Positions 21,479 to 41,694 of a DNA stretch of 64,000 bases are shown in pieces. The stretch is from Candidatus Limnocylindria bacterium. Its GTDB lineage: Bacteria > Chloroflexota > Limnocylindria > QHBO01. The stretch spans positions 4,590-68,589 of the forward strand of contig DASSCI010000039.1 of assembly GCA_035697845.1 (NCBI GenBank), given 5' to 3'. The translations under genes were made by a program, and so were the position numbers. The notes beneath the pieces are model-generated. The model did no database searches. It saw only the letters and a list, made by a program, of their open reading frames with translations, and was not told the DNA's origin. Each line of letters starts with the position of its first letter. The first letter of the stretch is position 1.

Positions 21479-23152
21479 CTAAGGCGTCTCGGCCTCGTTG
21501 AAGGCGTCGAAGCCGGCCGGTCCGAACCAGCCTTCCTCTGCGGAGCCGATCACGGCCACCTCGTCGGAGACGTTGCCCGTGTTTCGGGTCACCAGCAGAA
21601 GATCGGCTGACGGCGGATCCATGATGCCGGCGCTTGGGCGGCCGGCGGTCACCACGAGGTGATTGCCGGTCGGCGAGACCTTCACGTCGACGACGAACGA
21701 GCCTCCGGGGATATCGGTCGCGTCGATCGCGTGACCGCTGGTCACGCCGCGGGCGTCGGTTGCATGGCTGAAATAGACCCGCTGCGCATCGGGATAGGCG
21801 TTCGGAACCCCGGTCCACGCCGTATTCCAGACGGCGTAGGCGTCACCGTCCGGACCCCACGCGATGGCTGCCGAAGTGAATGCGTCGCGGCGGATCGTGA
21901 CATCCGAGAAGAGCAGGCGCGATTCGGTGAAGTCGTATCCGCGCTCGCCGTCGGGCTGGTTCTCGGCGAGCCACGGCGCCCCACCCTGCACGAACAGCCA
22001 CTCGCTGCCCGATTGCTCCATCACGCCGCTCCAGAAGATGACGAAGGCTCCGTTCGGGCTGACGAGTGGCTGGAAGATGTTCTCGGCCGGCGGGAACTCA
22101 CTGTCCGCCGGATCGGCGGCAGCGATGCTGCCAGCCTCGGGATCGAAGGCGACGAGGTAGCTGGACGGCGTTTCGCCCGCGGTGCTGACCCAGAGGACCG
22201 AGGTCCCGGGCACCCAGCTGCCGGCGTAGGCATTGCCGACGTCGGTCAGGCGCTCCGCCTCGCCGACGGATGGACGGAAGACCCACGCATCGGTCGTTTC
22301 GTCCTTCTGGTCTGCCAGCGTGAAGGCGAGAGTCGACCCGTCGTCGGACCATGACATCTGCTCGAGGAACGGGCTGCCGGCGACGGACTGGCCGAGATCC
22401 ACGGTGTCGCCGACGACGAACGGCGAATCGGGATCATCGGCCACCAATGTGGCGCGCACCTCGTGGAGCCCGCTCTCGCCGAGGGCGCTGATGTACGCCA
22501 GCCACTGCCCGCCGGGCGAGAGCGCGGCGGCAACGACCGGACCGCTCGGCGCCACCGCATCGGTGATCGTGTCGCCGGTCGTGCCGTCCCGGATGGACAT
22601 CTGCCGGTTCTCGACCGGACCGCTGACGGCGATGTAGACGTCGGGTTCGGGCGAGGCCGGGATCGGGGTCGCCGTCGGTTCCGGCTCGGGGGAAGGGGCC
22701 GCAGACTCGACCATCGAGGCGGACGGAGCAGGAGCCGATGCGCTCGGGGCGGCGCTGAAGCTGGCGGTGCCCGTCGGCGTGGGCGAGGCGTCGCCGATGG
22801 GCCGATCGGTCGTTCCGTTCAGGAGCACGATCGCCAGCAGCGCCCCGGCCACGACGGCCAGGCCACCGCCCGCGGCCGCGAAGATCGTGGTCGGACGGCG
22901 CCACCACGGGATCCCGACGGTCGAGCCGCCCTCGATGCCGGCACGCACCCGGGCGCCTAGATCCGCCGGCGGAGCGACGTGGCGAAGCCCGGCGACGATG
23001 CGTCGTTGGTCCGCGAAGGCCGCGAGGGTCGCGCGACACTCGGCGCAGGTATCGAGGTGCGCGTCGAGCCGGACGCGCTCGTCCGCGGAGAGGTCGCCGC
23101 GCAGCGAGGCGCTGATGAGCTCCTCGAACGGCTCGTGGCGGTCCATCGTCAT
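21479..23152 (-). CDS. Anti-sigma factor: N-terminal zinc-finger anti-sigma domain, single TM, large extracytoplasmic beta-propeller-like domain
   Basis: HLDTCAECR zinc-binding anti-sigma motif and a TM at ~res 90-110. The C-terminal ~400 aa are rich in W/G/D repeats (TolB/WD40-like). Start overlaps the ECF sigma stop. Confidence 0.65.
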   Translation of the reverse strand: MTMDRHEPFEELISASLRGDLSADERVRLDAHLDTCAECRATLAAFADQRRIVAGLRHVAPPADLGARVRAGIEGGSTVGIPWWRRPTTIFAAAGGGLAVVAGALLAIVLLNGTTDRPIGDASPTPTGTASFSAAPSASAPAPSASMVESAAPSPEPEPTATPIPASPEPDVYIAVSGPVENRQMSIRDGTTGDTITDAVAPSGPVVAAALSPGGQWLAYISALGESGLHEVRATLVADDPDSPFVVGDTVDLGQSVAGSPFLEQMSWSDDGSTLAFTLADQKDETTDAWVFRPSVGEAERLTDVGNAYAGSWVPGTSVLWVSTAGETPSSYLVAFDPEAGSIAAADPADSEFPPAENIFQPLVSPNGAFVIFWSGVMEQSGSEWLFVQGGAPWLAENQPDGERGYDFTESRLLFSDVTIRRDAFTSAAIAWGPDGDAYAVWNTAWTGVPNAYPDAQRVYFSHATDARGVTSGHAIDATDIPGGSFVVDVKVSPTGNHLVVTAGRPSAGIMDPPSADLLLVTRNTGNVSDEVAVIGSAEEGWFGPAGFDAFNEAETP

Positions 23153-23685
23153 CGTGCGAAGCCCTCAGCGGCCAGGGCTCGACGCATCTCGCCGCGCGCC
23201 CGACACAGCAGCGTGCGGACCGCGCCGTACGAGAGGCCCATCACCTCGCCGATCTGCTGCGCGCTCATGTCCTCGAGATCACTCAGGAGCAGGCACTGTC
23301 GATGATTCGGGCGCAGACCCATCAGGGCGCGCTGCACGCGCTCGTCCAGCGTGGAGGCCATGACCTGTGCCTCGGGGCCGGGGCGCTGATCGGGACGGTT
23401 CACGTACGTCGGCTCATCGGCGCCCATGGGGCGCACGTGGCGACGGCGGCGCATCTCGTCGATGGCGGTGTTCGTCGCGATCCGGTACAGCCACGACTTG
23501 CGCGACGTTGCTTCGTTCACGGTTCCGAGCTTGCGATAGGCCTTGATGAAGGTGTCCTGGGTGATGTCGGCGGCGCGATCGCGGTCGGCGACCATGCGCA
23601 GCACGTAGTTGTAGATCGGGGCCGAGAATTCATCGAACAGCTGGGCGAAGGCCAGCTCGTGCGCGTCGTCCGACCGGCGACTCAT
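23149..23685 (-). CDS. ECF (sigma-70 family) RNA polymerase sigma factor
   Basis: Region 2 (DITQDTFIKAYRKL) and region 4 HTH (LSDLEDMSAQQIGEVMGLSYGAVRTLLCRAR). Start set at MSRRSDD. Confidence 0.8.
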   Translation of the reverse strand: MSRRSDDAHELAFAQLFDEFSAPIYNYVLRMVADRDRAADITQDTFIKAYRKLGTVNEATSRKSWLYRIATNTAIDEMRRRRHVRPMGADEPTYVNRPDQRPGPEAQVMASTLDERVQRALMGLRPNHRQCLLLSDLEDMSAQQIGEVMGLSYGAVRTLLCRARGEMRRALAAEGFAR

Positions 23686-23795
23686 CGTGGGAGCATCCCA
23701 CGAGACCCTGCCGGGCAGCGCCATCGACTCCACCTCGTCCTCCGCACACACGGCCCCCAACTGTTCGCGTTCTGACGCAGGTGGCTGCCCATCTG

Positions 23796-27590: not shown

Positions 27591-28175
27591 GTGACCGCGC
27601 GGATGTGGCAGGCGGCATGGGACGATGAGGGCGTGGATGACACCGCCCTCATCGCCGCGCTGCGCGCCGGTGACCGCGATGCCTTTGCACTCCTCGTCGA
27701 GCGCGAGACGAGCTCGGTCTATCGCGCCTGCCTGCGCATTCTCGGCCGCCCGCACGACGCCGAAGACGTGACCCAGGAGAGCTTCGTGGCTGCCTACCGC
27801 GCCATCGGCCAGTTTCGATCGGAGGGCTCCCTGCGCGGGTGGCTGCTGCGGATCGCCACCCGCCAGTGCTTCCGTCGGCTCGCGCAACGCCGGCCGGCCG
27901 CCGACCTCGGCGCCATCGGCGATGGGCTGCTCGTCGACACGTCTGCGGAACCGGCGCGCGTCGCGGTCGCCGCCGAGGCGCGAGACGAGATCCGGGCCGC
28001 CGTTGCCGCGCTCGATGATCCGTACCGCGAGGTGGTGGCCCTGCGCTTCTTCGGCGACATGTCGCTGGCCGAGGTGGCCGAGACCACGGGGCGACCGATC
28101 AACACCGTGAAGACGCATCTGCGCCGCGGCCTCGAGCGGCTGCGCCCCGTATTTGCTTCCGAGGTGGACCGATGA
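27591..28175 (+). CDS. ECF RNA polymerase sigma factor
   Basis: Region 2 (DVTQESFVAAYRAIGQF) and region 4 (LSLAEVAETTGRPINTVKTHLRRG). Confidence 0.85.
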   Translation: MTARMWQAAWDDEGVDDTALIAALRAGDRDAFALLVERETSSVYRACLRILGRPHDAEDVTQESFVAAYRAIGQFRSEGSLRGWLLRIATRQCFRRLAQRRPAADLGAIGDGLLVDTSAEPARVAVAAEARDEIRAAVAALDDPYREVVALRFFGDMSLAEVAETTGRPINTVKTHLRRGLERLRPVFASEVDR

Positions 28176-32040: not shown

Positions 32041-32116
32041 TGGAGCGGGAAACGGGTCTCGAACCCGCGACCTTCTGCTTGGGAAGCAGACGCTCTGCCA
32101 ACTGAGCTATTCCCGC
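32041..32116 (-). tRNA. tRNA-Gly (anticodon CCC)
   Basis: Reverse complement GCGGGAATAGCTCAGTTGGCAGAGCGTCTGCTTCCCAAGCAGAAGGTCGCGGGTTCGAGACCCGTTTCCCGCTCCA. Cloverleaf with anticodon loop UUCCCAA, very similar to known tRNA-Gly. Confidence 0.9.
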
Positions 32117-32237
32117 GCCAGCCGATCGTAGCGGACGAGCGCGCCCTCAGTCCATCGGCCCAGTGGATTTGCGCATGGACATGCCAGACGCCGGGGGGTA
32201 GGTCCCGGCGTCGGCTGGTCGCTGTCGAGTGGAAGGC

Positions 32238-32510
32238 CTAGCGGATCAGGGTCACCCCACCGCCCTGGGCATGGCTCGGGGAGGCTGCGACGGTTCCGAC
32301 GGTGCCGGCGGCGACGGCCGCCATCAGGGCCACGCCAGCCAGGCCGGCCGCCAGCCGCCGAGCTGTCAGTGAGCGGAACGCGTCGCGATTGAACGGTCGC
32401 GCATGCTCGTGGCGGTCCTTCTGGACCATGCGGATGCGGGCCGCGTGATCGAGTCGCTCGCCGTACGTCTGCTTGGCCAGGTGATAGCTGGTGGTGTTCG
32501 GTCCGAGCAT
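32238..32510 (-). CDS. Hypothetical small protein with C-terminal TM
   Basis: Only ORF evidence; weak. Confidence 0.2.
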   Translation of the reverse strand: MLGPNTTSYHLAKQTYGERLDHAARIRMVQKDRHEHARPFNRDAFRSLTARRLAAGLAGVALMAAVAAGTVGTVAASPSHAQGGGVTLIR

Positions 32511-32623
32511 TGAAGTGTCTCCTTCGAGCTGGAGTGGTTGGCTCGTCGTCGTTGGAGGAATGCTCGCCCCGAGCGGGCCGAATCGGTGATCAACGGGCCG
32601 ACAGGAGGCCGGTCAACCTGCCG

Positions 32624-33424
32624 ATGCGCTCCCTGTCGGCCCAGCCGCGCATGCGCTGTCGTACGCGCGACACCTTGACGCCGAGCGCGCTGACGGGGGA
32701 GAGTGTCCGCGCGTACGAGGGTGCCTGCGTGCTCGACCATTCCGTCGCGATCGACCTGCTGCGCCGATGCGCGCTCTTCGCGCACGCGTCGGACGACGGC
32801 CTTCGTGCGCTGGCTGGCCAGATGCGGCGCCGCCGGTATCGGCGCAACGAGGTGATCTTCCACCAGGGAGACATCGGCGATTCCTTCCACGTGGTTGCTG
32901 CCGGCGCGGTCAAGATCGTGCTCCCGTCGGCCGAGGGCGACGAGGCAATCATCGCCAGCCTCAAGCCGGGCGACTTCTTCGGCGAGCTGGCGCTGCTCGA
33001 CAGCTCACCGCGCTCGACGACCGCGACGGCCATCGAGGTGACGGAGACGCTGACGCTTCCCCGTGAGCACTTCCTGCACCTCCTCCAGGACGATCCGGAG
33101 CTCGTCCGCGCCCTGCTGCGAGCGCTGGCCGAGGAGCTGCGCCGCCTCACGGGGCACGTGGAGGAGCTGCACTTCCTGGATCTCGCAGGGCGGTTGTCGA
33201 TGCGCCTGGTCCGCCTTGCCCGCGACGCCAACCCCGACGCCACCGGCCGCTGCGAGCTCGACTGGCCGTTCACCCAGTCTGACCTGGCTGCAATGATCGG
33301 CGGGACGCGCCAGAGCGTGAACAAGCTGCTCAGCGGCCTCGTCGAGGATGGGCTGATCAGCATCGAGCGCGACACCCTCGTCATCAACGACGTGCTCCAG
33401 CTCGAGCGTCATGGAAGCCGATGA
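32624..33424 (+). CDS. Crp/Fnr family transcriptional regulator (cNMP-binding + HTH)
   Basis: cNMP-binding motif (GDFFGELALLDSSPRSTTATA) and C-terminal HTH (QSDLAAMIGGTRQSVNKLLSGL). The start is uncertain; the track ORF begins at 32510. Confidence 0.8.
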   Translation: MRSLSAQPRMRCRTRDTLTPSALTGESVRAYEGACVLDHSVAIDLLRRCALFAHASDDGLRALAGQMRRRRYRRNEVIFHQGDIGDSFHVVAAGAVKIVLPSAEGDEAIIASLKPGDFFGELALLDSSPRSTTATAIEVTETLTLPREHFLHLLQDDPELVRALLRALAEELRRLTGHVEELHFLDLAGRLSMRLVRLARDANPDATGRCELDWPFTQSDLAAMIGGTRQSVNKLLSGLVEDGLISIERDTLVINDVLQLERHGSR

Positions 33425-33528
33425 GTGTCGCGCAGGCGACAGCCAGAGTGTCGGATCAGTGCTTCGGCGAGCGCACCGGGCACCGTAGGATCAGCCACAT
33501 TGCGGTCGATGCTGCCAGCTAGGAGGCA

Positions 33529-33921
33529 ATGAACGATATGGACAGATTCCGGCGGCGACCGCCGATGGAAGGGTTCTCGCGCCCGGGTTCGCTGGGCGGC
33601 GAGGCATACGATGACGACTCAGTGGAGGGTCACATGATGGACGACGATCGCACCCAGGACATCGACACCGAGGGCCACGCCTTCGTCCGCCGCGCGGATG
33701 AGAGCGACGACACCGAGGGTCACGCGTTCACCCGTCGCGCGGACGACAGCGACGATACCGAGGGCCACGCCTTCACCCGCCGAGCGGATGATGACGAGGA
33801 CACCGAGGGCCACGCGTTCACGCGTCGAGCCGACGACGAGGACGACACGGAAGGTCACGCCGGCTGGCTGAAGGCCACCGACGAGGACGACACAGAGGGC
33901 CACGTCTCCAAGATCAAGTAG
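33529..33921 (+). CDS. Small acidic tandem-repeat protein: six copies of a ~15-aa unit D-[DE]-x-D-T-E-G-H-A-F-[TV]-R-R-A-D
   Basis: Protein is MNDMDRFRRRPP...DTEGHAFVRRADESDDTEGHAFTRRADDSDDTEGHAFTRRADDDEDTEGHAFTRRADDEDDTEGHAGWLKATDEDDTEGHVSKIK. The 45-bp DNA repeats differ at synonymous positions. AGGAGG RBS upstream; the start may be ATG 33529 or 33538. Confidence 0.6.
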   Translation: MNDMDRFRRRPPMEGFSRPGSLGGEAYDDDSVEGHMMDDDRTQDIDTEGHAFVRRADESDDTEGHAFTRRADDSDDTEGHAFTRRADDDEDTEGHAFTRRADDEDDTEGHAGWLKATDEDDTEGHVSKIK

Positions 33922-33931
33922 CCACCCGCGC

Positions 33932-34711
33932 GTGGCACAAGATCCCCCAGTGGATGCCGCGATCGCCGCGCTTGTCGCGGCATCGCGGCGTTCCGCCGTT
34001 GGACGACGGCTGCAGGGCGACGTCGAGACCCGTCTCCTCCAGAGCATCGTCGACGCGACCGTGCGACTGTTCGATGCCGAGGCGGCCTCGATTGCGCTTT
34101 TCGAGCCGGATCCGGACCGGCTCGAGTTTCGTGTTGCCGCCGGCGAGCAGGGCGCGGGAGCGATCGGCCTGTCCGTTCCTCCCACCCAGGGCATCGTCGG
34201 CTTCGTCTACTCGACCGGCCAGGCGCTCGCTCTCTCCGACGTCGCCAACGATCCGCGCTTCAACCGGGATGCGGCGGAGCAGACGGGCTACGTGCCTCGC
34301 TCGATCGCCGCGGCCCCGCTGCTCGACGAGAACGGGACGCAGGGCGTCCTGCAGGTGCTCGACAAGCACTCGTCGGCGACCTTCTCACTGCGCGACATGG
34401 AGCTGCTGGCCGTCTTCGCGCGACAGGCGACCGTTGCCATCGCCGCCACCCGGGTCCAGCGCGACACCGCCCGTCTCCTGCGCGGCGTGCTGGCCGATCT
34501 CGCTCCGGACCTGACGGACGAGCAGGCCGAGGCCGCCGTATCGGCGGCGACGCAGGGGCTCGACGCAGAGGACGAGCCCTTCTGGAGTCTGGTCGACCAG
34601 ATCGCCCGACTTCGCGGGCTCAGCGACCGCGAGACGAGCCTGGTCTCGGCCATCCTGGAAACCGTGGCGGCTCACGCGGAGCGAACGCAGCGCGGCCGCA
34701 TCGGTCGATGA
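33932..34711 (+). CDS. GAF domain-containing protein
   Basis: GAF-like core (GIVGFVYSTGQALALSDVANDPRF...SIAAAPLLDENGTQGVLQVLDK). GTG start. Confidence 0.75.
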   Translation: MAQDPPVDAAIAALVAASRRSAVGRRLQGDVETRLLQSIVDATVRLFDAEAASIALFEPDPDRLEFRVAAGEQGAGAIGLSVPPTQGIVGFVYSTGQALALSDVANDPRFNRDAAEQTGYVPRSIAAAPLLDENGTQGVLQVLDKHSSATFSLRDMELLAVFARQATVAIAATRVQRDTARLLRGVLADLAPDLTDEQAEAAVSAATQGLDAEDEPFWSLVDQIARLRGLSDRETSLVSAILETVAAHAERTQRGRIGR

Positions 34712-35556
34712 CGTCGTCCGAGCTCCCGGCCTGGTCCGAGCCGTTCACCAACCGCCGGCGCGAGCTTCGCCGACGCCTCCGGGTCAAGGGCGTCACGCGT
34801 GATTGGGCCTGGGGCGGGGCGACCGGGGCCGGCGTCCGGGTTGGCATCATCGACTCGGGGCTCGAGAACGCACATCCGAGGCTCCGCGGACGCGTCGCCG
34901 AGAACGTCACGGTCGAGATGACCGATGACGGTCCAAGGGTCGTGCCGGACGACCCGATCGACATGTTCGGACATGGCACTGCGTGCGGCGACATCATCCT
35001 CTCGCTCGCTCCCGACGTGGAGCTCGTCAGCATCCGGGTCCTTGGCGCCGACCTGCGCGGCAAGGGAACCGCCTTCGCCGCCGGGCTGGAGTGGGCCCTC
35101 GAGCATGACATCCAGGTCTGCAACCTGAGCCTGTCGTCGAAGAGCGAGTCGCTGTACCCGGTCTTCCACGACCTGGCCGATCGCGCCTACTTCCAGTCGA
35201 TGGCGCTCATCAGCGCCGCCAACAACGTGCCGGCGCCGAGCTATCCGTCCCTGTTCAGCTCGGTCTTCTCGGTGGCCGCTCACGCCGAGCCGGACCCGTG
35301 GCGCATCTACTACAACCCGGCGCCTCCGGTCGAGTTCGGCGCGTGGGGCGTGGACGTGCCGATCGCCTGGAAGGACGGCGGCTCCACGGTGGCCACTGGC
35401 AACAGCTTCGCCGCGCCGCACGTGGCGGGGCTGGTGGCGCTGATCCTCTCGAAGCACCCGGGCCTGAGCCCGTTCGAGGTGAAGGCCATCCTGGCCAGCG
35501 TGGCCGACAACCCCGGACGGCGACATCCGTGGCGTCGGCGCGTGTCCGCTCCGTGA
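34708..35556 (+). CDS. S8 family (subtilisin-like) serine peptidase, no signal peptide (cytoplasmic)
   Basis: Catalytic triad motifs VGIIDSG (Asp), HGTACGD (His) and GNSFAAPHVAG (Ser). ATGA overlap with the GAF gene. Confidence 0.8.
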   Translation: MTSSELPAWSEPFTNRRRELRRRLRVKGVTRDWAWGGATGAGVRVGIIDSGLENAHPRLRGRVAENVTVEMTDDGPRVVPDDPIDMFGHGTACGDIILSLAPDVELVSIRVLGADLRGKGTAFAAGLEWALEHDIQVCNLSLSSKSESLYPVFHDLADRAYFQSMALISAANNVPAPSYPSLFSSVFSVAAHAEPDPWRIYYNPAPPVEFGAWGVDVPIAWKDGGSTVATGNSFAAPHVAGLVALILSKHPGLSPFEVKAILASVADNPGRRHPWRRRVSAP

Positions 35557-37169
35557 GCCTGCTTCGGACCTACCTCGACCTCTTCCGCCGCAACGGTGCG
35601 CTCTCGCGCCTGCTGGCAGGCGAGTTCGTGTCGGGCATCGGCGACTGGCTGTATCTCGTGGCGGTCCTCGTCGTCGTCTACGCCGACAGCAACTCGCCGG
35701 TGCTCCTCGGCATCGTGGGCGCCGCGCGGATCCTGCCGTACGTGCTGCTGTCCGTTCCGGCCGGCATCGTCGCCGACCGCTTCGACCGGCGGATGGTCCT
35801 GTTGGTGACCGACGTCGCCCGCGGCGTCCTGATGCTCGTGCTGGTCGGTGCGGTGATGGTCGATGCTCCGACCCTCGTGATCGTGGCGGTGTCCATCCTG
35901 GCGGCCTGCTTCTCGACCTTCTTCGGCCCGGCCATCGCTGCGCTGGTGCCGACGATCGTCGATGAGCGCGACCTCGGAATCGCCAACAGCGCGTGGGCCA
36001 CGCTCGACAACGTCGCCTTCATCGTGGGGCCCGCGCTCGCGGGGCTCCTGCTCGCCGGCGGAGGGCTGGAGATCGCCTTCCTGCTCAACGCCGTCTCGTT
36101 CGCCGTCGTGGCCGTCGTGCTCTGGCAGCTGCCGATTCCACGCACGGCCGACGTGGTGGTGAGCCCCGAGGACGAGCAGCCGGCATCGGCCTCCTGGCGC
36201 GATCTCGTTCGGCCCCTGGCGGGCCCCTTCATCCTCGACTCGACCACCAGCATCGTCGGAGGCGGCCTGGGCGTGCTGACGGTCGTCATCGCCATCGACG
36301 TGCTGGGCGCGGGCGATGCCGGGACCGGCTACCTGAATGCCGCCATCGGCGTCGGCGGAGTCGTGGCGGGCATCGCCGGAGGTGCGCTCCTCGCACGCAG
36401 GCTGAGCGTGCCGCTCCTGCTGGGCGGCCTCGCCGGAGGTGTCGGCCTCGCGTGGCTCGCGCTGACCGGTGATCTCCTGACCGCCATGCTCGCCATCGGC
36501 GTCGCCGTGGCCGGGCTGCTGCTCCTCGACGTGGTCAACACCACGCTCATCCAGCGCATCGTTCCCGATGCGCTCCGCGGACGCGCCGTGGGCGCGATGC
36601 AGACCAGCTCATCGGTCCTGTATGCCGCCGGCTCGCTGGTCATGCCGCTGCTGGCGGACGCGCTGGGCGTGCCCGTGGTGCTGATCGGCGCAGCGGTCAT
36701 CATGGCCGCCGGCGCAATCCTGGCCCTGGTGCTCAGCGGGAGCCAGGAGGAACCCGCGGCCGTCGATGCCTCGCGCATCCGGTTGCTGGAGCGGCCGATC
36801 TTCGCCGGGCTTCCGCCAGCTCGCATCGAGGCAGCCGCACGAGGACTGGTCCCCGTGCCGGTTGATGCGGGCGAGGCCGTCGTTCGCCAGGGCGAGGCGG
36901 CCGACCGCTTCTACGTGATCGATTCCGGAGAGCTGCGCGTCACGCAGGTCAGCGACGGTGACGTCCATTTCCTGCGTGATCTCGGCCCGGGCGACGTCTT
37001 CGGCGAGATCGGCCTGCTGCGAGGAGTGCCCCGCACGGCGACCGTCACGGCCAGCACTCCCGCCGTGCTCTACGCCCTCGACGCCGCGGCCTTCGGTGAG
37101 CTGGTTGGCTCCGGGCCTGGATTGAGCTCGCGGCTGCTCGATCTGTACCGGGGCGCGCTCAGCCGTTGA
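35553..37169 (+). CDS. MFS transporter fused to a C-terminal cyclic-nucleotide-binding domain
   Basis: ~12 TM helices followed by a cNMP-binding domain (FYVIDSGELRV...GPGDVFGEIGLLRGVPRTATVTA). GTGA overlap with the S8 peptidase stop. Confidence 0.75.
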   Translation: MSLLRTYLDLFRRNGALSRLLAGEFVSGIGDWLYLVAVLVVVYADSNSPVLLGIVGAARILPYVLLSVPAGIVADRFDRRMVLLVTDVARGVLMLVLVGAVMVDAPTLVIVAVSILAACFSTFFGPAIAALVPTIVDERDLGIANSAWATLDNVAFIVGPALAGLLLAGGGLEIAFLLNAVSFAVVAVVLWQLPIPRTADVVVSPEDEQPASASWRDLVRPLAGPFILDSTTSIVGGGLGVLTVVIAIDVLGAGDAGTGYLNAAIGVGGVVAGIAGGALLARRLSVPLLLGGLAGGVGLAWLALTGDLLTAMLAIGVAVAGLLLLDVVNTTLIQRIVPDALRGRAVGAMQTSSSVLYAAGSLVMPLLADALGVPVVLIGAAVIMAAGAILALVLSGSQEEPAAVDASRIRLLERPIFAGLPPARIEAAARGLVPVPVDAGEAVVRQGEAADRFYVIDSGELRVTQVSDGDVHFLRDLGPGDVFGEIGLLRGVPRTATVTASTPAVLYALDAAAFGELVGSGPGLSSRLLDLYRGALSR

Positions 37170-37181
37170 TCCTCGCGCACG

Positions 37182-38102
37182 TCAGGCGGCGAGGTCACCG
37201 GTGAGCATGCGCCGATAGGAGTCGTAGCGCGCCTCGCTCACCGCGCCGGCCTCCACCGCTGCCCGCAGCCCGCAGCGCGGCTCATGCAGGTGGCTGCAGT
37301 CGTTGAAGGCGCAGTTTCCCAGGTGCTCGCGAAACTCGGGGAAGCACCAGGCCAGCTCGCTGGGCGGGATCTCCCACAGGCCGAGCTCACGAATGCCCGG
37401 CGTGTCGGCGACGTACCCACCACCCGCGAGCGCATGCAGCTCCGCGTGGGTGGTGGTGTGCTTGCCCTTGCCGGCGAGCACCTGCGAGACCTCGCCGGTC
37501 GCCAGCTGCAGGCCGGGTTGGATGGCATTCAGGAGCGTCGACTTGCCCACGCCGGACGGCCCGGTGACGATCGACAGCTTGCCGGCCAGCCGCGCGCGCA
37601 GCTCCTCGACGCCCATGCCCGTCTTCGCCGACGCGTAGACGACCTCGTAGCCGATCTGTGCATAGCCGCCGAACAGCCGCTGCGCCTCCGCCTCGCCGAC
37701 GAGGTCGACCTTGTTGGCCACGAGCAGCACGGGCACCTCGTTGTATTCCGTCACCACCAGGAACCGATCCACGAGCCGCGGATTGGGCGGCGGTCGATCG
37801 CACGCGAACACGACGGCCACCAGGTCCGGATTGGCGACCATCACGTCCTCGCGCCACGACCCGCGCGGCCCGGGCTGCCGGCGGCTGAACCGCCGCTCTC
37901 GAGGCTCGACGGCGTCGATGGCGCCGGTCCCATCCGCCAGGCGCTCGACGCTCACGCGGTCGCCGATGACCGCGAGGTCGGACGCCTGGCGCTCCTTCTT
38001 GACCCGGCCGCGCAGGCGCGCCTCCACGAGGTCACCTTCGTCGGTCAGCACGGTGTAGAAGCCGGATCGGGCTCGCAGGACGACCCCGCGGGTGCGGCTC
38101 AT
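37182..38102 (-). CDS. rsgA: Ribosome small-subunit-dependent GTPase A
   Basis: Circularly permuted GTPase motifs (NKVDL...GPSGVGKSTLLN...DTPG) and a C-terminal zinc-binding Cys cluster (CAFNDCSHLHEPRC). Start at MSRTRGVV. Confidence 0.85.
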   Translation of the reverse strand: MSRTRGVVLRARSGFYTVLTDEGDLVEARLRGRVKKERQASDLAVIGDRVSVERLADGTGAIDAVEPRERRFSRRQPGPRGSWREDVMVANPDLVAVVFACDRPPPNPRLVDRFLVVTEYNEVPVLLVANKVDLVGEAEAQRLFGGYAQIGYEVVYASAKTGMGVEELRARLAGKLSIVTGPSGVGKSTLLNAIQPGLQLATGEVSQVLAGKGKHTTTHAELHALAGGGYVADTPGIRELGLWEIPPSELAWCFPEFREHLGNCAFNDCSHLHEPRCGLRAAVEAGAVSEARYDSYRRMLTGDLAA

Positions 38103-39006: not shown

Positions 39007-40185
39007 ATGGAGCCCATGCCCCCCCATTTGCTCCGCGCCGATGTCCTGCTGGTCGGTGGTGGCGTGGCGGCCGTGCGCTGCGCCCGCACGCTGCGCCGGC
39101 GCGGCTTCGCCGGCTCGATCCTGCTCGTCGGCGACGAGCCGATGCTCCCGTACAACCGCCCGCCGCTGAGCAAGGAGCTCCTCCGCGAGGATCTGCCCGA
39201 CGACCTCGTGTTGGCCGAACCCGAATCCTGGTACGAGCGGCGTTCGGTGGACCTCCGGCTCGGAACGCGGGTCGAGCGTCTCGAGGCCGCCGACCACCGC
39301 GCCATCCTGGACGATGGAACCGCCGTCGCCTTTGGCCAGTGCCTCCTCGCGACCGGCGCCGAGCCGCGACGCCTGCCCATCCCGGGTGCCGATCGTGCGC
39401 TGGTGCTGCGGACCATCGCCGATGCGCGCCGCCTGGGCGCGGCCGCGACGCCGGGCGAGACCGCGGTGATCATCGGCGGCGGCTTCATCGGCGTCGAGGT
39501 CGCCTCGTCGCTCGCCGCGCGCGGGGTGCGCGTCGTCATCGCCGAGCTTGCGGATGCGCTGTGGGGCGGCGCGTTCGGCGCAGACCTGAGCAGCTGGGCC
39601 CGGGCGCGCCTGGAGGACGCGGGTGTCGTGGTGAGGACCGGCGCCGCGGCGACCGCCGTCGACGAGCGTGCCGTCCATCTGGGCGACGAGCGGATCGACG
39701 CCGGCGTGGTGCTCGTCGCCGCCGGCGTGACGCCCCGGACGGAGCTCGCGGCCGACGCAGGGCTGGACGTCGACGATGGCATCGTCACCGATGCGCTGCA
39801 TCGGACCAGCGCGCCATCGGTCTTCGCCGCGGGCGACGTCGCGCGTGTTGCGGGCGCGCGCGTCGAGCACTGGCATGCCGCGCGGGAGGGAGGGGAGCGA
39901 GCGGCCCTCGCCATGCTGGATGAGCCGGTTCCTCCCGCCCGGGCGCCGTGGGTCTTCAGCGAAGTCGCCGGCCACCAGCTCGACGTCGTCGGTTCGGCGA
40001 CGAACGCGGCCCAGATTCGGCGCATCGGCGACCAGGAGCGCTTTGCCCTGGCGTACGTGTCCGATGGCGTGGTCGAGCAGGTCGCGATCGTGGACGCCGC
40101 CGTCCCGGTGGACGACGCCCGCGCCCTCGTGGAGCGTGGCGCGAGCGCCGAGGAGCTGGAGCGCGCCCTCCTCTCCGGAGTTTGA
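39007..40185 (+). CDS. FAD-dependent pyridine nucleotide-disulfide oxidoreductase (ferredoxin/putidaredoxin-reductase-like)
   Basis: FAD motif VLLVGGGVAAVRCA and NAD motif AVIIGGGFIGVEVASSL. Confidence 0.8.
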   Translation: MEPMPPHLLRADVLLVGGGVAAVRCARTLRRRGFAGSILLVGDEPMLPYNRPPLSKELLREDLPDDLVLAEPESWYERRSVDLRLGTRVERLEAADHRAILDDGTAVAFGQCLLATGAEPRRLPIPGADRALVLRTIADARRLGAAATPGETAVIIGGGFIGVEVASSLAARGVRVVIAELADALWGGAFGADLSSWARARLEDAGVVVRTGAAATAVDERAVHLGDERIDAGVVLVAAGVTPRTELAADAGLDVDDGIVTDALHRTSAPSVFAAGDVARVAGARVEHWHAAREGGERAALAMLDEPVPPARAPWVFSEVAGHQLDVVGSATNAAQIRRIGDQERFALAYVSDGVVEQVAIVDAAVPVDDARALVERGASAEELERALLSGV

Positions 40186-40222
40186 CCAGGGACGGCGGCT
40201 GGGGGACAATGGCGGCGTAACA

Positions 40223-40239
40223 CCGACTATTTCGGTCGG
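40223..40239. promoter_or_regulatory. Inverted repeat CCGAC-N7-GTCGG upstream of sufB (candidate operator)
   Basis: Seen in sequence ~45 nt upstream of the sufB start. Function not established. Confidence 0.25.
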
Positions 40240-40281
40240 GATTCGCGTCGCAGCGAAACCCGGCCCGAGTCCGAGGAGCGC

Positions 40282-41694
40282 ATGGCCCTTCCGAATCCCG
40301 CCCTGACCCAGATTCCAGACTCATACAAGTACGGCTGGAGCGATCCCGAGGCGACGCACCTGAACATCGCCCGCAAGGGCCTTTCGGCCGAGATCGTCGA
40401 GGAGATCAGCCGTTTCAAGGGCGAGCCGGAGTGGATGACGAAGCTTCGCCTCAAGGCCTATCGGCACTTCGAGGCGCGGCCGATGCCGAACTGGGGCGCC
40501 GACCTGTCGGCCATCGACTTCCAGGACATCTACTACTACATCGCGCCGACCGACAAGGCGGTCCAGAGCTGGGACGACGTGCCCGACTACATCCGGCGCA
40601 CGTACGACAAGCTCGGCATCCCGGAGGCGGAGAAGAAGTACCTCGCCGGTGTCGGCGGCCAGTACGACTCCGAGGTCGTGTACCACAACATCCGCGAGGA
40701 CCTCGAGAAGCAGGGCGTCATCTTCCTCGGCACCGATGAGGCCCTCAAGAAGCACCCGGACATCTTCCTCGAGCACTTCGGGACCGTCATCCCGGCCAAC
40801 GACAACAAGCTGGCCGCGCTGAACACGGCGGTCTGGTCGGGCGGATCGTTCATCTACGTGCCGCCGGGCGTGCACGTCGAGCTGCCGCTGCAGGCCTACT
40901 TCCGGATCAACACCGAGAACATGGGCCAGTTCGAGCGGACGCTGATCATCGCCGACGAGGGGTCGAGCGTTCACTACGTCGAGGGCTGCACCGCGCCGAC
41001 GTACTCGACCGCTTCCCTCCACAGCGCCGTGGTCGAGATCATCGTCAAGAAGGGCGCGCGGGTGCGCTACACGACGATCCAGAACTGGAGCCACAACGTC
41101 TACAACCTCGTCACCAAGCGCGCCGTGGCGCACGAGGACGCGGTCATGGAGTGGGTCGACGGCAATCTCGGCTCGCGCGTGACGATGAAGTACCCGTCCA
41201 TCTACCTGGTCGGTGAGCGGGCGCACGGCGAGGTGCTGTCCATCGCCTTCGCGGGCGACGAGCAGCACCAGGACGCCGGCGGCAAGGTCATCCACGCGGC
41301 GCCGCACACGACCTCGCTCATCACCTCGAAGTCGATCAGCAAGGGCTCCGGCCGCACCTCGTACCGCGGCCTGGTCAAGGTCTATCCCGGCTGCGAGAAG
41401 TCGAAGTCGACGGTCCGTTGCGACGCCCTGATCCTCGACGAGCAGGCGCGCTCCGACACGTATCCGTACATGGAGATCGACGAGGAGGACGTCACCATCG
41501 GCCACGAGGCGACCGTCTCGAAGGTCGGCAGCGAGCAGCTCTTCTACCTCATGAGCCGCGGCCTGTCGGAGGCCGAAGCCGCCGCGATGATCGTGAACGG
41601 CTTCATCGAGCCAATCGTCAAGGAGCTGCCGATGGAGTACGCGGTCGAGATGAACCGCCTCATCCAGCTCCAGATGGAAGGCGCCGTCGGGTGA
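40282..41694 (+). CDS. sufB: Fe-S cluster assembly protein SufB
   Basis: 470 aa; highly conserved SufB sequence (e.g. ...[30 protein letters not shown]...). Confidence 0.9.

Follow-up and report, generated by a model that had tools for sequence, protein, structure and literature searches.

Which task in the cell could be served by five genes standing side by side in a 64-kb stretch of DNA (the window) from a metagenome-assembled genome (MAG) of Candidatus Limnocylindria (Chloroflexota), all on the + strand and encoding, in this order, a Crp-like regulator, an acidic tandem-repeat protein, a GAF-domain protein, a subtilisin-like S8 protease and a transporter of the major facilitator superfamily (MFS) fused to a cyclic-nucleotide-binding (cNMP) domain? 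The genes are linked, their domains are identified, a motif in the repeat protein and an operator in front of its gene are conserved and relatives of the protease occur as fusions. On these observations we judge the chance to be about even that the five genes form one cyclic-nucleotide-controlled module which makes, cuts and releases small unmodified peptides.

An earlier note on this DNA had described five co-oriented genes, had predicted the domains cNMP_binding, GAF, Peptidase_S8 and MFS_1 and had pointed to three sensing modules, i.e. the cNMP domain of the Crp-like protein, the GAF domain and the cNMP domain of the transporter. Pfam recovers every one of these, and comparison of the domains and of their nearest relatives places the two cNMP domains and, probably, the GAF domain in the cyclic-nucleotide type. 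The 4-nt overlaps said to couple the GAF, S8 and MFS genes are found as ATGA at 34708-34711 (GAF stop and S8 start) and GTGA at 35553-35556 (S8 stop and MFS start), and both recur among called genes of orthologous loci. Two gene starts are revised: position 32510 only opens the reading frame of the regulator, for which the GTG at 32729 is likelier as it gives the orthologue length of 231 amino acids (aa), and the transporter gene starts at 35553 and not at 35298.

The module recurs in about 140 fetched loci (given L numbers where they have to be told apart). Repeat-protein homologues were aligned, and a scan with this alignment over genomes, one per species, retrieved 51 loci, nearly all from Limnocylindria, Limnocylindrales or 'uncultured Chloroflexia', and all five genes are present in every one of these that is long enough. 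When 80 metagenome loci were picked solely by S8 similarity, an open reading frame (ORF) with the motif described below was found in all 31 having at least 1.3 kb upstream of S8, always adjacent to it. The earlier note had considered the outcome that homologous repeat proteins are never syntenic with S8 and MFS genes in other genomes; the opposite is seen by both routes. The window S8 protein is 100% identical to a protein of Candidatus Limnocylindria MAGs, and one Limnocylindria MAG locus (L004) shows 91-99% identity in every compared protein of the region. Within this main clade synteny extends to the flanking genes (Kelch, GNAT, RsgA), and linkage there consequently proves little. In distant loci, having S8 proteins of 55-64% identity, the gene order is rearranged and the flanks are unrelated while the module is kept together, with orders such as MFS+,Rep+,S8-,GAF-,Crp- or MFS,Crp,Rep,GAF,S8 (Rep being the repeat gene), and also Rep,Crp,GAF,S8 accompanied by an MFS gene in the opposite orientation. 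The linkage thus goes far beyond chance, survives rearrangement and holds for both selection routes, which supports the proposal that the five genes act as one functional module. Loci labelled Steroidobacteraceae, Binatia, Angelobacter or Acidimicrobiales were considered as evidence of wider spread and set aside; we take them as mis-binned, as they show Limnocylindria synteny at 54-83% protein identity.

The repeat protein has no family in Pfam, NCBIfam or PADLOC, and each of the 178 homologues found is unnamed. Tandem Repeats Finder (TRF) reports a 45-nt period with 4.4 copies (score 233, at 33663-33861), and the 130 residues comprise 41 Asp and Glu, 7 His and no Cys, resulting in an isoelectric point (pI) of 4.3. 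An N-terminal block RRRPPMEGFSRPGSLGGEA..SVEGH is followed by six DTEGH units and a tail VSKIK, giving seven [VT]EGH motifs, one SVEGH and six DTEGH, with basic spacers between the units that read AF[TV]RRA four times and then AGWLKA. The tandem repeat claimed in the earlier note is real, whereas its claim of six near-identical units each ending in RR goes too far, as only four read AF[TV]RRAD, the fifth being AGWLKAT and the tail VSKIK. Comparing 892 motif instances in 216 family members shows E-G-H being invariant, preceded by T or V in 99%, by D before that in 86% and by two to three further acidic residues upstream, the conserved element being [DE]-D-[TV]-E-G-H. The segment following the His differs between genomes (AFTRRA, GVLKRA, KLNTRGIA, RLFKQGE, FRAT), and spacers reach up to ~70 residues, commonly with a single basic residue plus A, T or S just ahead of the acidic run. 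Tandem copies number from two to nine, and 210 of the 216 members are without Cys. Members of the main clade have a short basic tail at the C-terminus (A-x-K-[LI]-[KR] or x-L-[NT]-K-R-S), whilst distant members lack the N-terminal block RRRPPMEGFSRPG and end in FGQLKSPSSRGE or in a basic helix of 42 residues (..MNPxLARxLARAxExDIQR..). Forms with a single motif exist as well, carrying C-termini as varied as tails of 4-6 aa, a tail of 12 aa or the 42-aa helix.

With a median identity to main-clade orthologues of 60%, versus 86% for S8, the repeat protein is the fastest evolving of the module. Among the units within the window gene the proportion of synonymous differences (pS) is 0.64 and that of non-synonymous differences (pN) 0.16, and within the orthologue of L001 they are 0.53 and 0.04; units of other genomes, having a pS near 0, were copied recently. 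High pS combined with low pN among units suggests the whole unit, spacer included, being under purifying selection within a genome although spacers differ between genomes. AlphaFold2, run with a 17-sequence alignment, gives a mean pLDDT (predicted local distance difference test) of 52 and no secondary structure, and the model would fit a disordered precursor or linear-motif protein and not a folded structural protein. A further block, M-E-G-F-S-x-P-G (residues 13-24; 33565-33600), is invariant in the aligned main-clade proteins and resembles EGF/EGI sub-repeats in distant-clade spacers; it may be what is left of an EGH unit, or may serve for docking. In the distant clade, many motif proteins (e.g. 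L055 7001-7219) share the conserved end FGQLKSPSSRGE, whose terminal [ST]-R-G-E recalls what we take to be the C-termini of Pup/UBact-type protein modifiers.

The regulator belongs to the Crp/Fnr family, as it shows cNMP_binding (1.5e-26) and a C-terminal HTH_Crp_2 helix-turn-helix domain (3.8e-14), both above cut-off, a canonical phosphate-binding cassette FGELALLDSSPRST (FGE...PRS) and a 16-bp palindrome at two promoters; it is not a CRP equivalog, scoring 99.6 bits against a cut-off of 266. The palindrome, TGTC-N8-GACA, was discovered by aligning 20 upstream regions of the repeat gene and has the geometry of Crp/NtcA-type operators. It occurs just twice in the 64-kb window, at the two sites listed in Table 1, with an extra TGTC half-site at 33449-33452 beyond the second. 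For 75 of the 88 loci an exact copy is found in the 400 nt preceding the first motif codon, compared to ~0.03-0.05 expected from the background rate, and most orthologous loci have it also at the equivalent of the first window site, 5' of the regulator, which suggests autoregulation. It is kept in rearranged loci, in single-motif variants, in non-Limnocylindria loci and, in L142, 5' of a DVEGH ORF. Its conserved placement points to the adjacent regulator controlling its own gene and the repeat gene. About 52 nt 3' of the palindrome centre TAGGAT is conserved, followed by a Shine-Dalgarno sequence, and would be the -10-like box of the repeat-gene promoter; a scan of 32100-37400 for sigma-70 promoters and intrinsic terminators gave nothing above shuffled expectation.

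The GAF protein consists of its GAF domain (Pfam 7.2e-19, above cut-off) and a conserved helical tail of ~85 aa. The nearest solved relatives are the GAF domains of PDE2A, PDE5, PDE10A and CyaB2, with which the block DPRFNRDAAEQTGYVPRSIAAAPL...GVLQVLDK, following the pattern DPRFxRxxAExTGYVPRS...GVLxVLDK, aligns, but with LDK in place of NK. The domain is probably of the PDE/CyaB2 type, and its ligand may be a cyclic nucleotide. No cyclase gene lies within 12 kb on either side of the module in the window. Elsewhere cyclases of 1,100-1,200 aa (Guanylate_cyc and AAA_16, with or without tetratricopeptide repeats (TPR)) flank the module, and such large class III cyclases, with or without TPR or zinc ribbons, stand beside the S8/GAF genes in L080 (170-3769), L098 (6955-10392), L107 (5506-9057), L140 (3839-5428) and L141 (3836-6952). 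In L098 the cyclase operon has a third TGTC-N8-GACA copy at its 5' side, a hint that nucleotide synthesis is under feedback from the regulator.

The S8 protein is a bare catalytic domain (Peptidase_S8 3.7e-23; 82.7 bits vs cut-off 21.8) without signal peptide, I9 propeptide or the Ca loop 75-83. Its N-terminus is non-hydrophobic (maximum Kyte-Doolittle score over 19 residues of 0.32 within the first 50 aa), in agreement with the signal-less subtilisin described before. The catalytic residues D49, H89 and S233 and the oxyanion N173, corresponding to D32, H64, S221 and N155 of BPN', are intact and conserved in orthologues, and LPAWSEPF at the N-terminus is invariant. On the substrate-binding strand a basic [RK]-G-K triplet replaces S101-G-Q103 of BPN', with R117 and K119 of the window protein at positions 101 and 103. 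All loci whose motif is the acidic EGH have a basic triplet [RK]-G-[KR]; L140, L144 and L146 lack it, while L145, whose motif is DDV[QT]GN, keeps only the R at 103 (T-G-R). This partial covariation between the motif residue that would occupy P3 and S8 positions 101/103 is suggestive and stems from few loci. The best named model for the protease is QhpE (NF049966; 112.6 bits, below the cut-off of 165); radical S-adenosylmethionine (SAM), QhpC-like and ATP-binding cassette (ABC) genes are absent within 12 kb on either side. Mycosin (TIGR03921) fits no better, the score being 104.8 bits versus 278.75, with no hydrophobic segment anywhere in S8 and no ESX genes nearby.

Relatives of the S8 protein were searched for exhaustively among 1.8 billion cluster representatives, giving 239 clusters at E <= 1e-30, and the ten longest among the best 150 hits were scanned with Pfam. 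These ten include GAF-S8 fusions, S8-kinase fusions, a LuxR-S8 fusion and an ABC-exporter-S8 fusion, the GAF-S8 and ABC-exporter-S8 fusions occurring in relatives at 40-53% identity. The GAF-S8 fusions argue for the GAF domain acting directly on the protease, and the ABC-exporter-S8 fusion argues for this S8 subfamily coupling cutting to export. The actinomycete Thermocatellispora tengchongensis (L140) encodes an S8 protein 49% identical to that of the window, in the order 70-aa ORF (ending ..DEVEGHDLKLV), cyclase, S8, GAF, 42-aa acidic Cys-containing ORF, radical SAM, DUF6895, MFS_3 and LuxR. In L142 a GAF-S8 fusion adjoins a Crp-like gene, an MFS_3-cNMP gene and DVEGH ORFs of 34 aa and 50 aa, and in L145 genes for GAF, S8 and Crp follow one for 77 aa in which DDVQGN, DDVTGN and DDAGGH are repeated. 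Small [DE]VEGH peptides thus accompany the GAF/S8 pair outside the window's lineage as well. The 967-aa ABC exporter of L144 (1317-4594) carries a C-terminal S8 domain of the window subfamily and is followed by a precursor-like 125-aa ORF, NHLP/Nif11-like at its N-terminus and containing Cys at its C-terminus; this ABC-S8 protein is analogous to the C39-containing PCAT (peptidase-containing ABC transporter) exporters, with a subtilase in place of C39. L146 has a LuxR-S8 gene, then GAF, then two radical SAM genes, and no EGH ORF in its available 6 kb.

The transporter matches MFS_1 (7.8e-36) and MFS_3 (PF05977; 7.1e-28; 97.8 bits vs cut-off 27), with hydrophobic segments over residues 24-399 followed by a soluble C-terminal cNMP domain (cNMP_binding 1.6e-22), FGEIGLLRGVPRTAT, which has a canonical phosphate-binding cassette (FGE...PR[ST]). 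It stays below the EntS and ryptide-exporter equivalog cut-offs, and TIGR03896 matches both cNMP domains, of the regulator and of the transporter, weakly and far below its cut-off. The MFS-cNMP fusion recurs in orthologous loci and, in L142, beside the GAF-S8 fusion. In the rearranged clade (L055 1794-4154, L056 13517-14396, L057 13029-14426) a gene with HMA and E1-E2_ATPase domains and an Ogt-like DNA_binding_1 gene lie beside MFS-cNMP; the HMA ATPase neighbour may be plain synteny, though it bears on the possibility of a metal-binding role considered below.

Table 1. Positions of the genes and of candidate regulatory sites of the module in the window
Feature	Position	Strand	Basis
Crp/Fnr-family regulator, 231 aa, GTG start	32729..33424	+	Pfam, orthologue length, upstream GAGG
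Repeat protein, 130 aa, proposed precursor/substrate	33529..33921	+	TRF, composition, homologues
GAF protein, 259 aa, proposed nucleotide-dependent protease regulator	33932..34711	+	Pfam, PDB matches, orthologue alignment
Cytoplasmic S8 subtilase, 282 aa	34708..35556	+	Pfam, alignment with BPN'
MFS_3-type transporter (EntS/'transmembrane secretion effector' family), 538 aa, proposed gated exporter	35553..37169	+	
Operator-like palindrome TGTCGTACGCGCGACA (TGTC-N8-GACA)	32657..32672	.	57 nt 5' of probable regulator start
Operator-like palindrome TGTCGCGCAGGCGACA	33426..33441	.	straight after regulator stop, ~90 nt 5' of repeat gene
TAGGAT, putative -10-like box	33486..33491	+	conserved column block, 20 aligned upstream regions
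AGGAGG, Shine-Dalgarno sequence of repeat gene	33521-33526	+	

These findings suggest a model according to which a cyclic nucleotide, supplied by a cyclase whose gene lies at another place in the genome, would act at three points, i.e. the regulator, the GAF/S8 pair and the exporter. The nucleotide-bound Crp-like regulator would act at the TGTC-N8-GACA operators, one preceding its own gene and one preceding the repeat gene, setting transcription of the latter and probably of the downstream GAF-S8-MFS genes too. The repeat protein would be a disordered acidic poly-precursor in which [DE]D[TV]EGH provides the recognition and cleavage sites of the QhpE-like S8 protease. We guess that the protease cuts after His, V/T-E-G-H filling P4-P1, because the conserved block comprises ~4-6 residues, ends sharply at His and resembles I-E-G-R sites. 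The PDE-type GAF protein, translationally coupled here and fused in relatives, may make proteolysis nucleotide-dependent, and MFS_3 could then export the fragments, 15-mers such as AFTRRADDSDDTEGH with a basic head and an acidic tail, in a transport step presumably gated by its C-terminal cNMP domain. Alternatively, a second cut might yield short basic peptides such as AFTRR or VSKIK. The logic of precursor, cytoplasmic protease and exporter put forward in the earlier note has the best support, given the QhpE model, the GAF and ABC fusions and the clusters with radical SAM and MFS_3 genes.

Several observations weigh against this peptide-release model. We infer the identity of the substrate, the cleavage and its position, the direction of regulation, the export step and the biological role, which could be that of a signal, a metal-binding peptide or a toxin. 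As a cut after His leaves the acidic motif on the products, short basic peptides would need a second protease, and neither a modifying enzyme nor a receptor for released peptides is found among the module genes. L107 and L113 have a single-motif 60-aa protein instead of repeats, so a multi-core precursor is not universal. In a sub-clade with S8 proteins of 64-79% identity the MFS-cNMP gene is often not adjacent, and in L080 (6825-7244, -) and L098 (5136-5564, -) a stand-alone cNMP-binding protein of ~140 aa, convergent and just 3' of S8, replaces it. The covariation of motif and protease has exceptions in both directions, L121 having K-G-K despite a D[TV]SGH motif and L140 S-G-S despite an EVEGH ORF, and the AlphaFold2 model of S8, built from a shallow alignment (mean pLDDT 43), is too poor for inspecting the pocket. 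Finally, L058 (329-1418), on a contig of 61% GC, encodes adjacent proteins of 151 aa and 155 aa rich in x-[VT]-[EQ]-G-H in a different, possibly folded context, with no S8, GAF or MFS within 7 kb downstream; these are either an unrelated family or motif proteins without a protease, and so a possible counter-example.

Part of this evidence would suit a repeat protein that stays in the cell and there buffers metal or Ca, works as a stress hydrophilin or forms a scaffold whose motifs bind a partner, its lifetime being set by GAF/S8 while the MFS protein moves a metal chelate, a nucleotide or something else, a reading we regard as rather unlikely overall. The extreme composition (pI, Asp, Glu and His) and the predicted disorder speak for it, as do the HMA/P-type ATPase beside MFS in distant-clade loci, the loci in which MFS is not adjacent and the lack of an encoded receptor for a secreted peptide; D-x-D-x-E-G-H moreover resembles what we take to be DxDxDG-type cation-binding loops. 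Yet the window neighbourhood contains no HMA ATPase, this S8 subfamily is otherwise met in peptide-maturation clusters and in fusions to exporters, three separate lineages combine MFS_3 with the S8/GAF pair, and the single-motif forms with diverse C-terminal 'cargo' look like leader plus core and less like a metal buffer. It is improbable that the motif protein is a trans-acting inhibitor of S8 or a folding helper replacing the I9 propeptide, with EGH units sitting as slow substrates in the active-site cleft. The missing propeptide, the motif ORFs always adjoining S8, the invariance of the motif while the rest drifts and the single-turnover, suicidal behaviour reported for QhpE (PMC7876137), an unusual enzyme:peptide stoichiometry in this group, would all agree with such a role; two to nine tandem copies and purifying selection on the spacers within a gene are hard to explain by it, and it leaves the exporter and the separate, operator-controlled promoter of the motif gene unaccounted for.

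A conventional ribosomally synthesised and post-translationally modified peptide (RiPP) of cyanobactin- or kexin-like type, with modifying enzymes encoded elsewhere and cuts at dibasic sites, we consider very improbable in spite of the multi-copy precursor architecture and the radical SAM genes adjoining the actinomycete S8/GAF relatives. The earlier note had made the dibasic RR the key site and had drawn analogies to kexin-type and cyanobactin-like processing. RR occurs in 4 of the 6 units here and is missing from most orthologues, whose spacers include, besides those named above, RKLQAT; what is common towards the end of the spacer is no more than one basic residue; kexin/furin-type processing, for which a conserved dibasic site would be expected at each boundary, was accordingly discarded. 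The cyanobactin analogy likewise falls away, the precursor being without Cys, as are nearly all family members, the 282-aa S8 having no macrocyclase insert or domain and no heterocyclase being found among the neighbour genes; no modifying enzyme lies within 12 kb on either side in the window, and none is conserved in the gene tables of the Limnocylindria loci looked up. That the gene order is no more than inherited synteny of one lineage, devoid of functional meaning, has next to no chance of being right, even if the main-clade flanks are syntenic as well: the association is kept through at least four different orders of the genes and amid unrelated flanks, holds for loci chosen by S8, is mirrored by GAF-S8 fusions and comes with a shared operator.

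Returning to the model of a precursor cut and released under nucleotide control, a comparison with described systems shows how far each resembles it. QhpE is a cytoplasmic leader peptidase removing the leader before ABC export, and maturation of the quinohemoprotein amine dehydrogenase gamma-subunit by QhpE/QhpC/QhpF resembles the module in that a small signal-less subtilase cuts a ribosomal peptide in the cytoplasm before dedicated export (PMC7876137). The module differs in lacking QhpC, the radical SAM protein QhpD and QhpG, in its MFS_3 instead of ABC exporter and in its acidic tandem-repeat substrate, whereas qhp loci have neither GAF nor cNMP control. The LanP-type protease ElxP is likewise a cytoplasmic S8 enzyme that reads a short motif at the leader end (PMC10885120); here a lanthipeptide synthetase and Cys/Ser/Thr ring chemistry are missing and the motif is repeated many times. 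Kexin-processed repeat precursors, such as yeast alpha-factor or those of the fungal ustiloxin type, follow the same multi-copy design cut by a subtilisin-family protease. In cyanobactin PatA/PatG/PatE systems, too, recognition sequences alternate with variable peptides in a multi-copy precursor cut by subtilisin-family enzymes (PMC10885120). In contrast to both, the module pairs an acidic [DE]D[TV]EGH with a minimal 282-aa protease, and a heterocyclase, a macrocyclase and a conserved dibasic site are all missing.

Tandem Phr propeptides of the Bacillus Rap-Phr systems carry several pheromone-like copies per propeptide, are strain-diversified and are released by proteases including Epr and Vpr (PMC11343458). 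Phr is exported by Sec, is cut outside the cell and has the Rap receptor encoded adjacently, whereas the module would combine cytoplasmic processing, MFS export and cNMP control and encodes no receptor. The actinobacterial FxSxx-COOH/zincin systems (Kaur, Burroughs, Iyer and Aravind 2020) have a small, fast-diverging precursor from which an adjacent peptidase frees a short C-terminal peptide, and some of them, among cyclase/STAND systems, are linked to a CRP-like cNMP-sensing regulator (PMC7159879). They are the closest conceptual precedent for the cNMP link, while differing by their zincin instead of S8, by other motifs and by having neither GAF nor an MFS-cNMP fusion. TIGR03896, the 'bacteriocin-type transport-associated protein', shares the coupling of a cNMP domain to an export system, its members being partners of ABC/C39 systems. 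The mycobacterial MFS-cNMP fusions Rv3728 and Rv3239c are, as we understand them, uncharacterised efflux pumps with a coupled cNMP domain. We know of no TIGR03896 or mycobacterial MFS-cNMP protein that has been connected with a GAF/S8 pair or with EGH-motif peptides.

The module is not a member of the QhpE, mycosin, CRP, EntS or TIGR03896 families, all equivalog cut-offs being missed. Literature searches found no description of the combination of GAF, subtilisin, precursor and cyclic nucleotide, in line with the opinion of the earlier note that this gene set is not a described system; searches for DUF6895 and Limnocylindria gave nothing relevant, and the motif strings DVEGH, DTEGH, DDVEGH and DDTEGH gave only unrelated matches in a full-text search. 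We put forward, as a tentative extension that is less likely than not, that the module represents a peptide-signalling system of Terrabacteria not described before, one that is widespread in Limnocylindria and has relatives among Actinomycetota; cAMP or cGMP would control transcription, cytoplasmic processing and MFS-mediated release in it, all at once. With no greater assurance we add that a GAF-coupled subtilase might cut tandem-repeat precursors at a universal [DE]D[TV]EGH tag to give short, lineage-specific, unmodified products. Such a system would be a bacterial counterpart of prohormone or alpha-factor processing, possibly serving as a pherotype-forming quorum or kin signal.

Concerning the surroundings of the module, a tRNA-Gly(CCC) gene lies just upstream at 32041-32116 (-), and between it and the regulator gene a 90-aa ORF at 32238-32510 (-), divergent from the regulator, has no Pfam match; by eye it has a hydrophobic stretch in its C-terminal half, and it is kept beside the regulator in main-clade loci only. 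Further upstream are two genes for sigma factors of the extracytoplasmic function (ECF) type (regions 21479-23760 (-) and 27591-28175 (+)), one of them paired with a 557-aa zf-HC2 anti-sigma factor, with GNAT, OsmC and HIT-family genes between the two. Downstream, the start of a suf operon at 40000-41500 (sufB, sufD-like, Rieske, sufC-like, sufS, ThiF/rhodanese) has a G+C content of 0.65-0.68 compared to 0.70-0.76 around it. PADLOC gave only generic cNMP-domain and subtilase matches and no model of an anti-phage defence system.

Limnocylindria (formerly Ellin6529) are an abundant soil lineage known here only from MAGs, for which a class-wide module offers a rare handle on their cell biology. 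If the model holds true, this would be the first case known to us of a cyclic nucleotide gating both a peptide-processing protease, via GAF, and the exporter of the peptide, and the release of peptides would be tied to second-messenger signalling. The [DE]D[TV]EGH tag and its matching S8 protease could define a new leader or recognition family aiding genome mining, the same S8/GAF cassette marking radical-SAM peptide clusters in actinomycetes, and the pair could serve as a sequence-specific protease/tag tool. The presence of a related cluster in Thermocatellispora tengchongensis suggests that experiments on this family of modules may be feasible.

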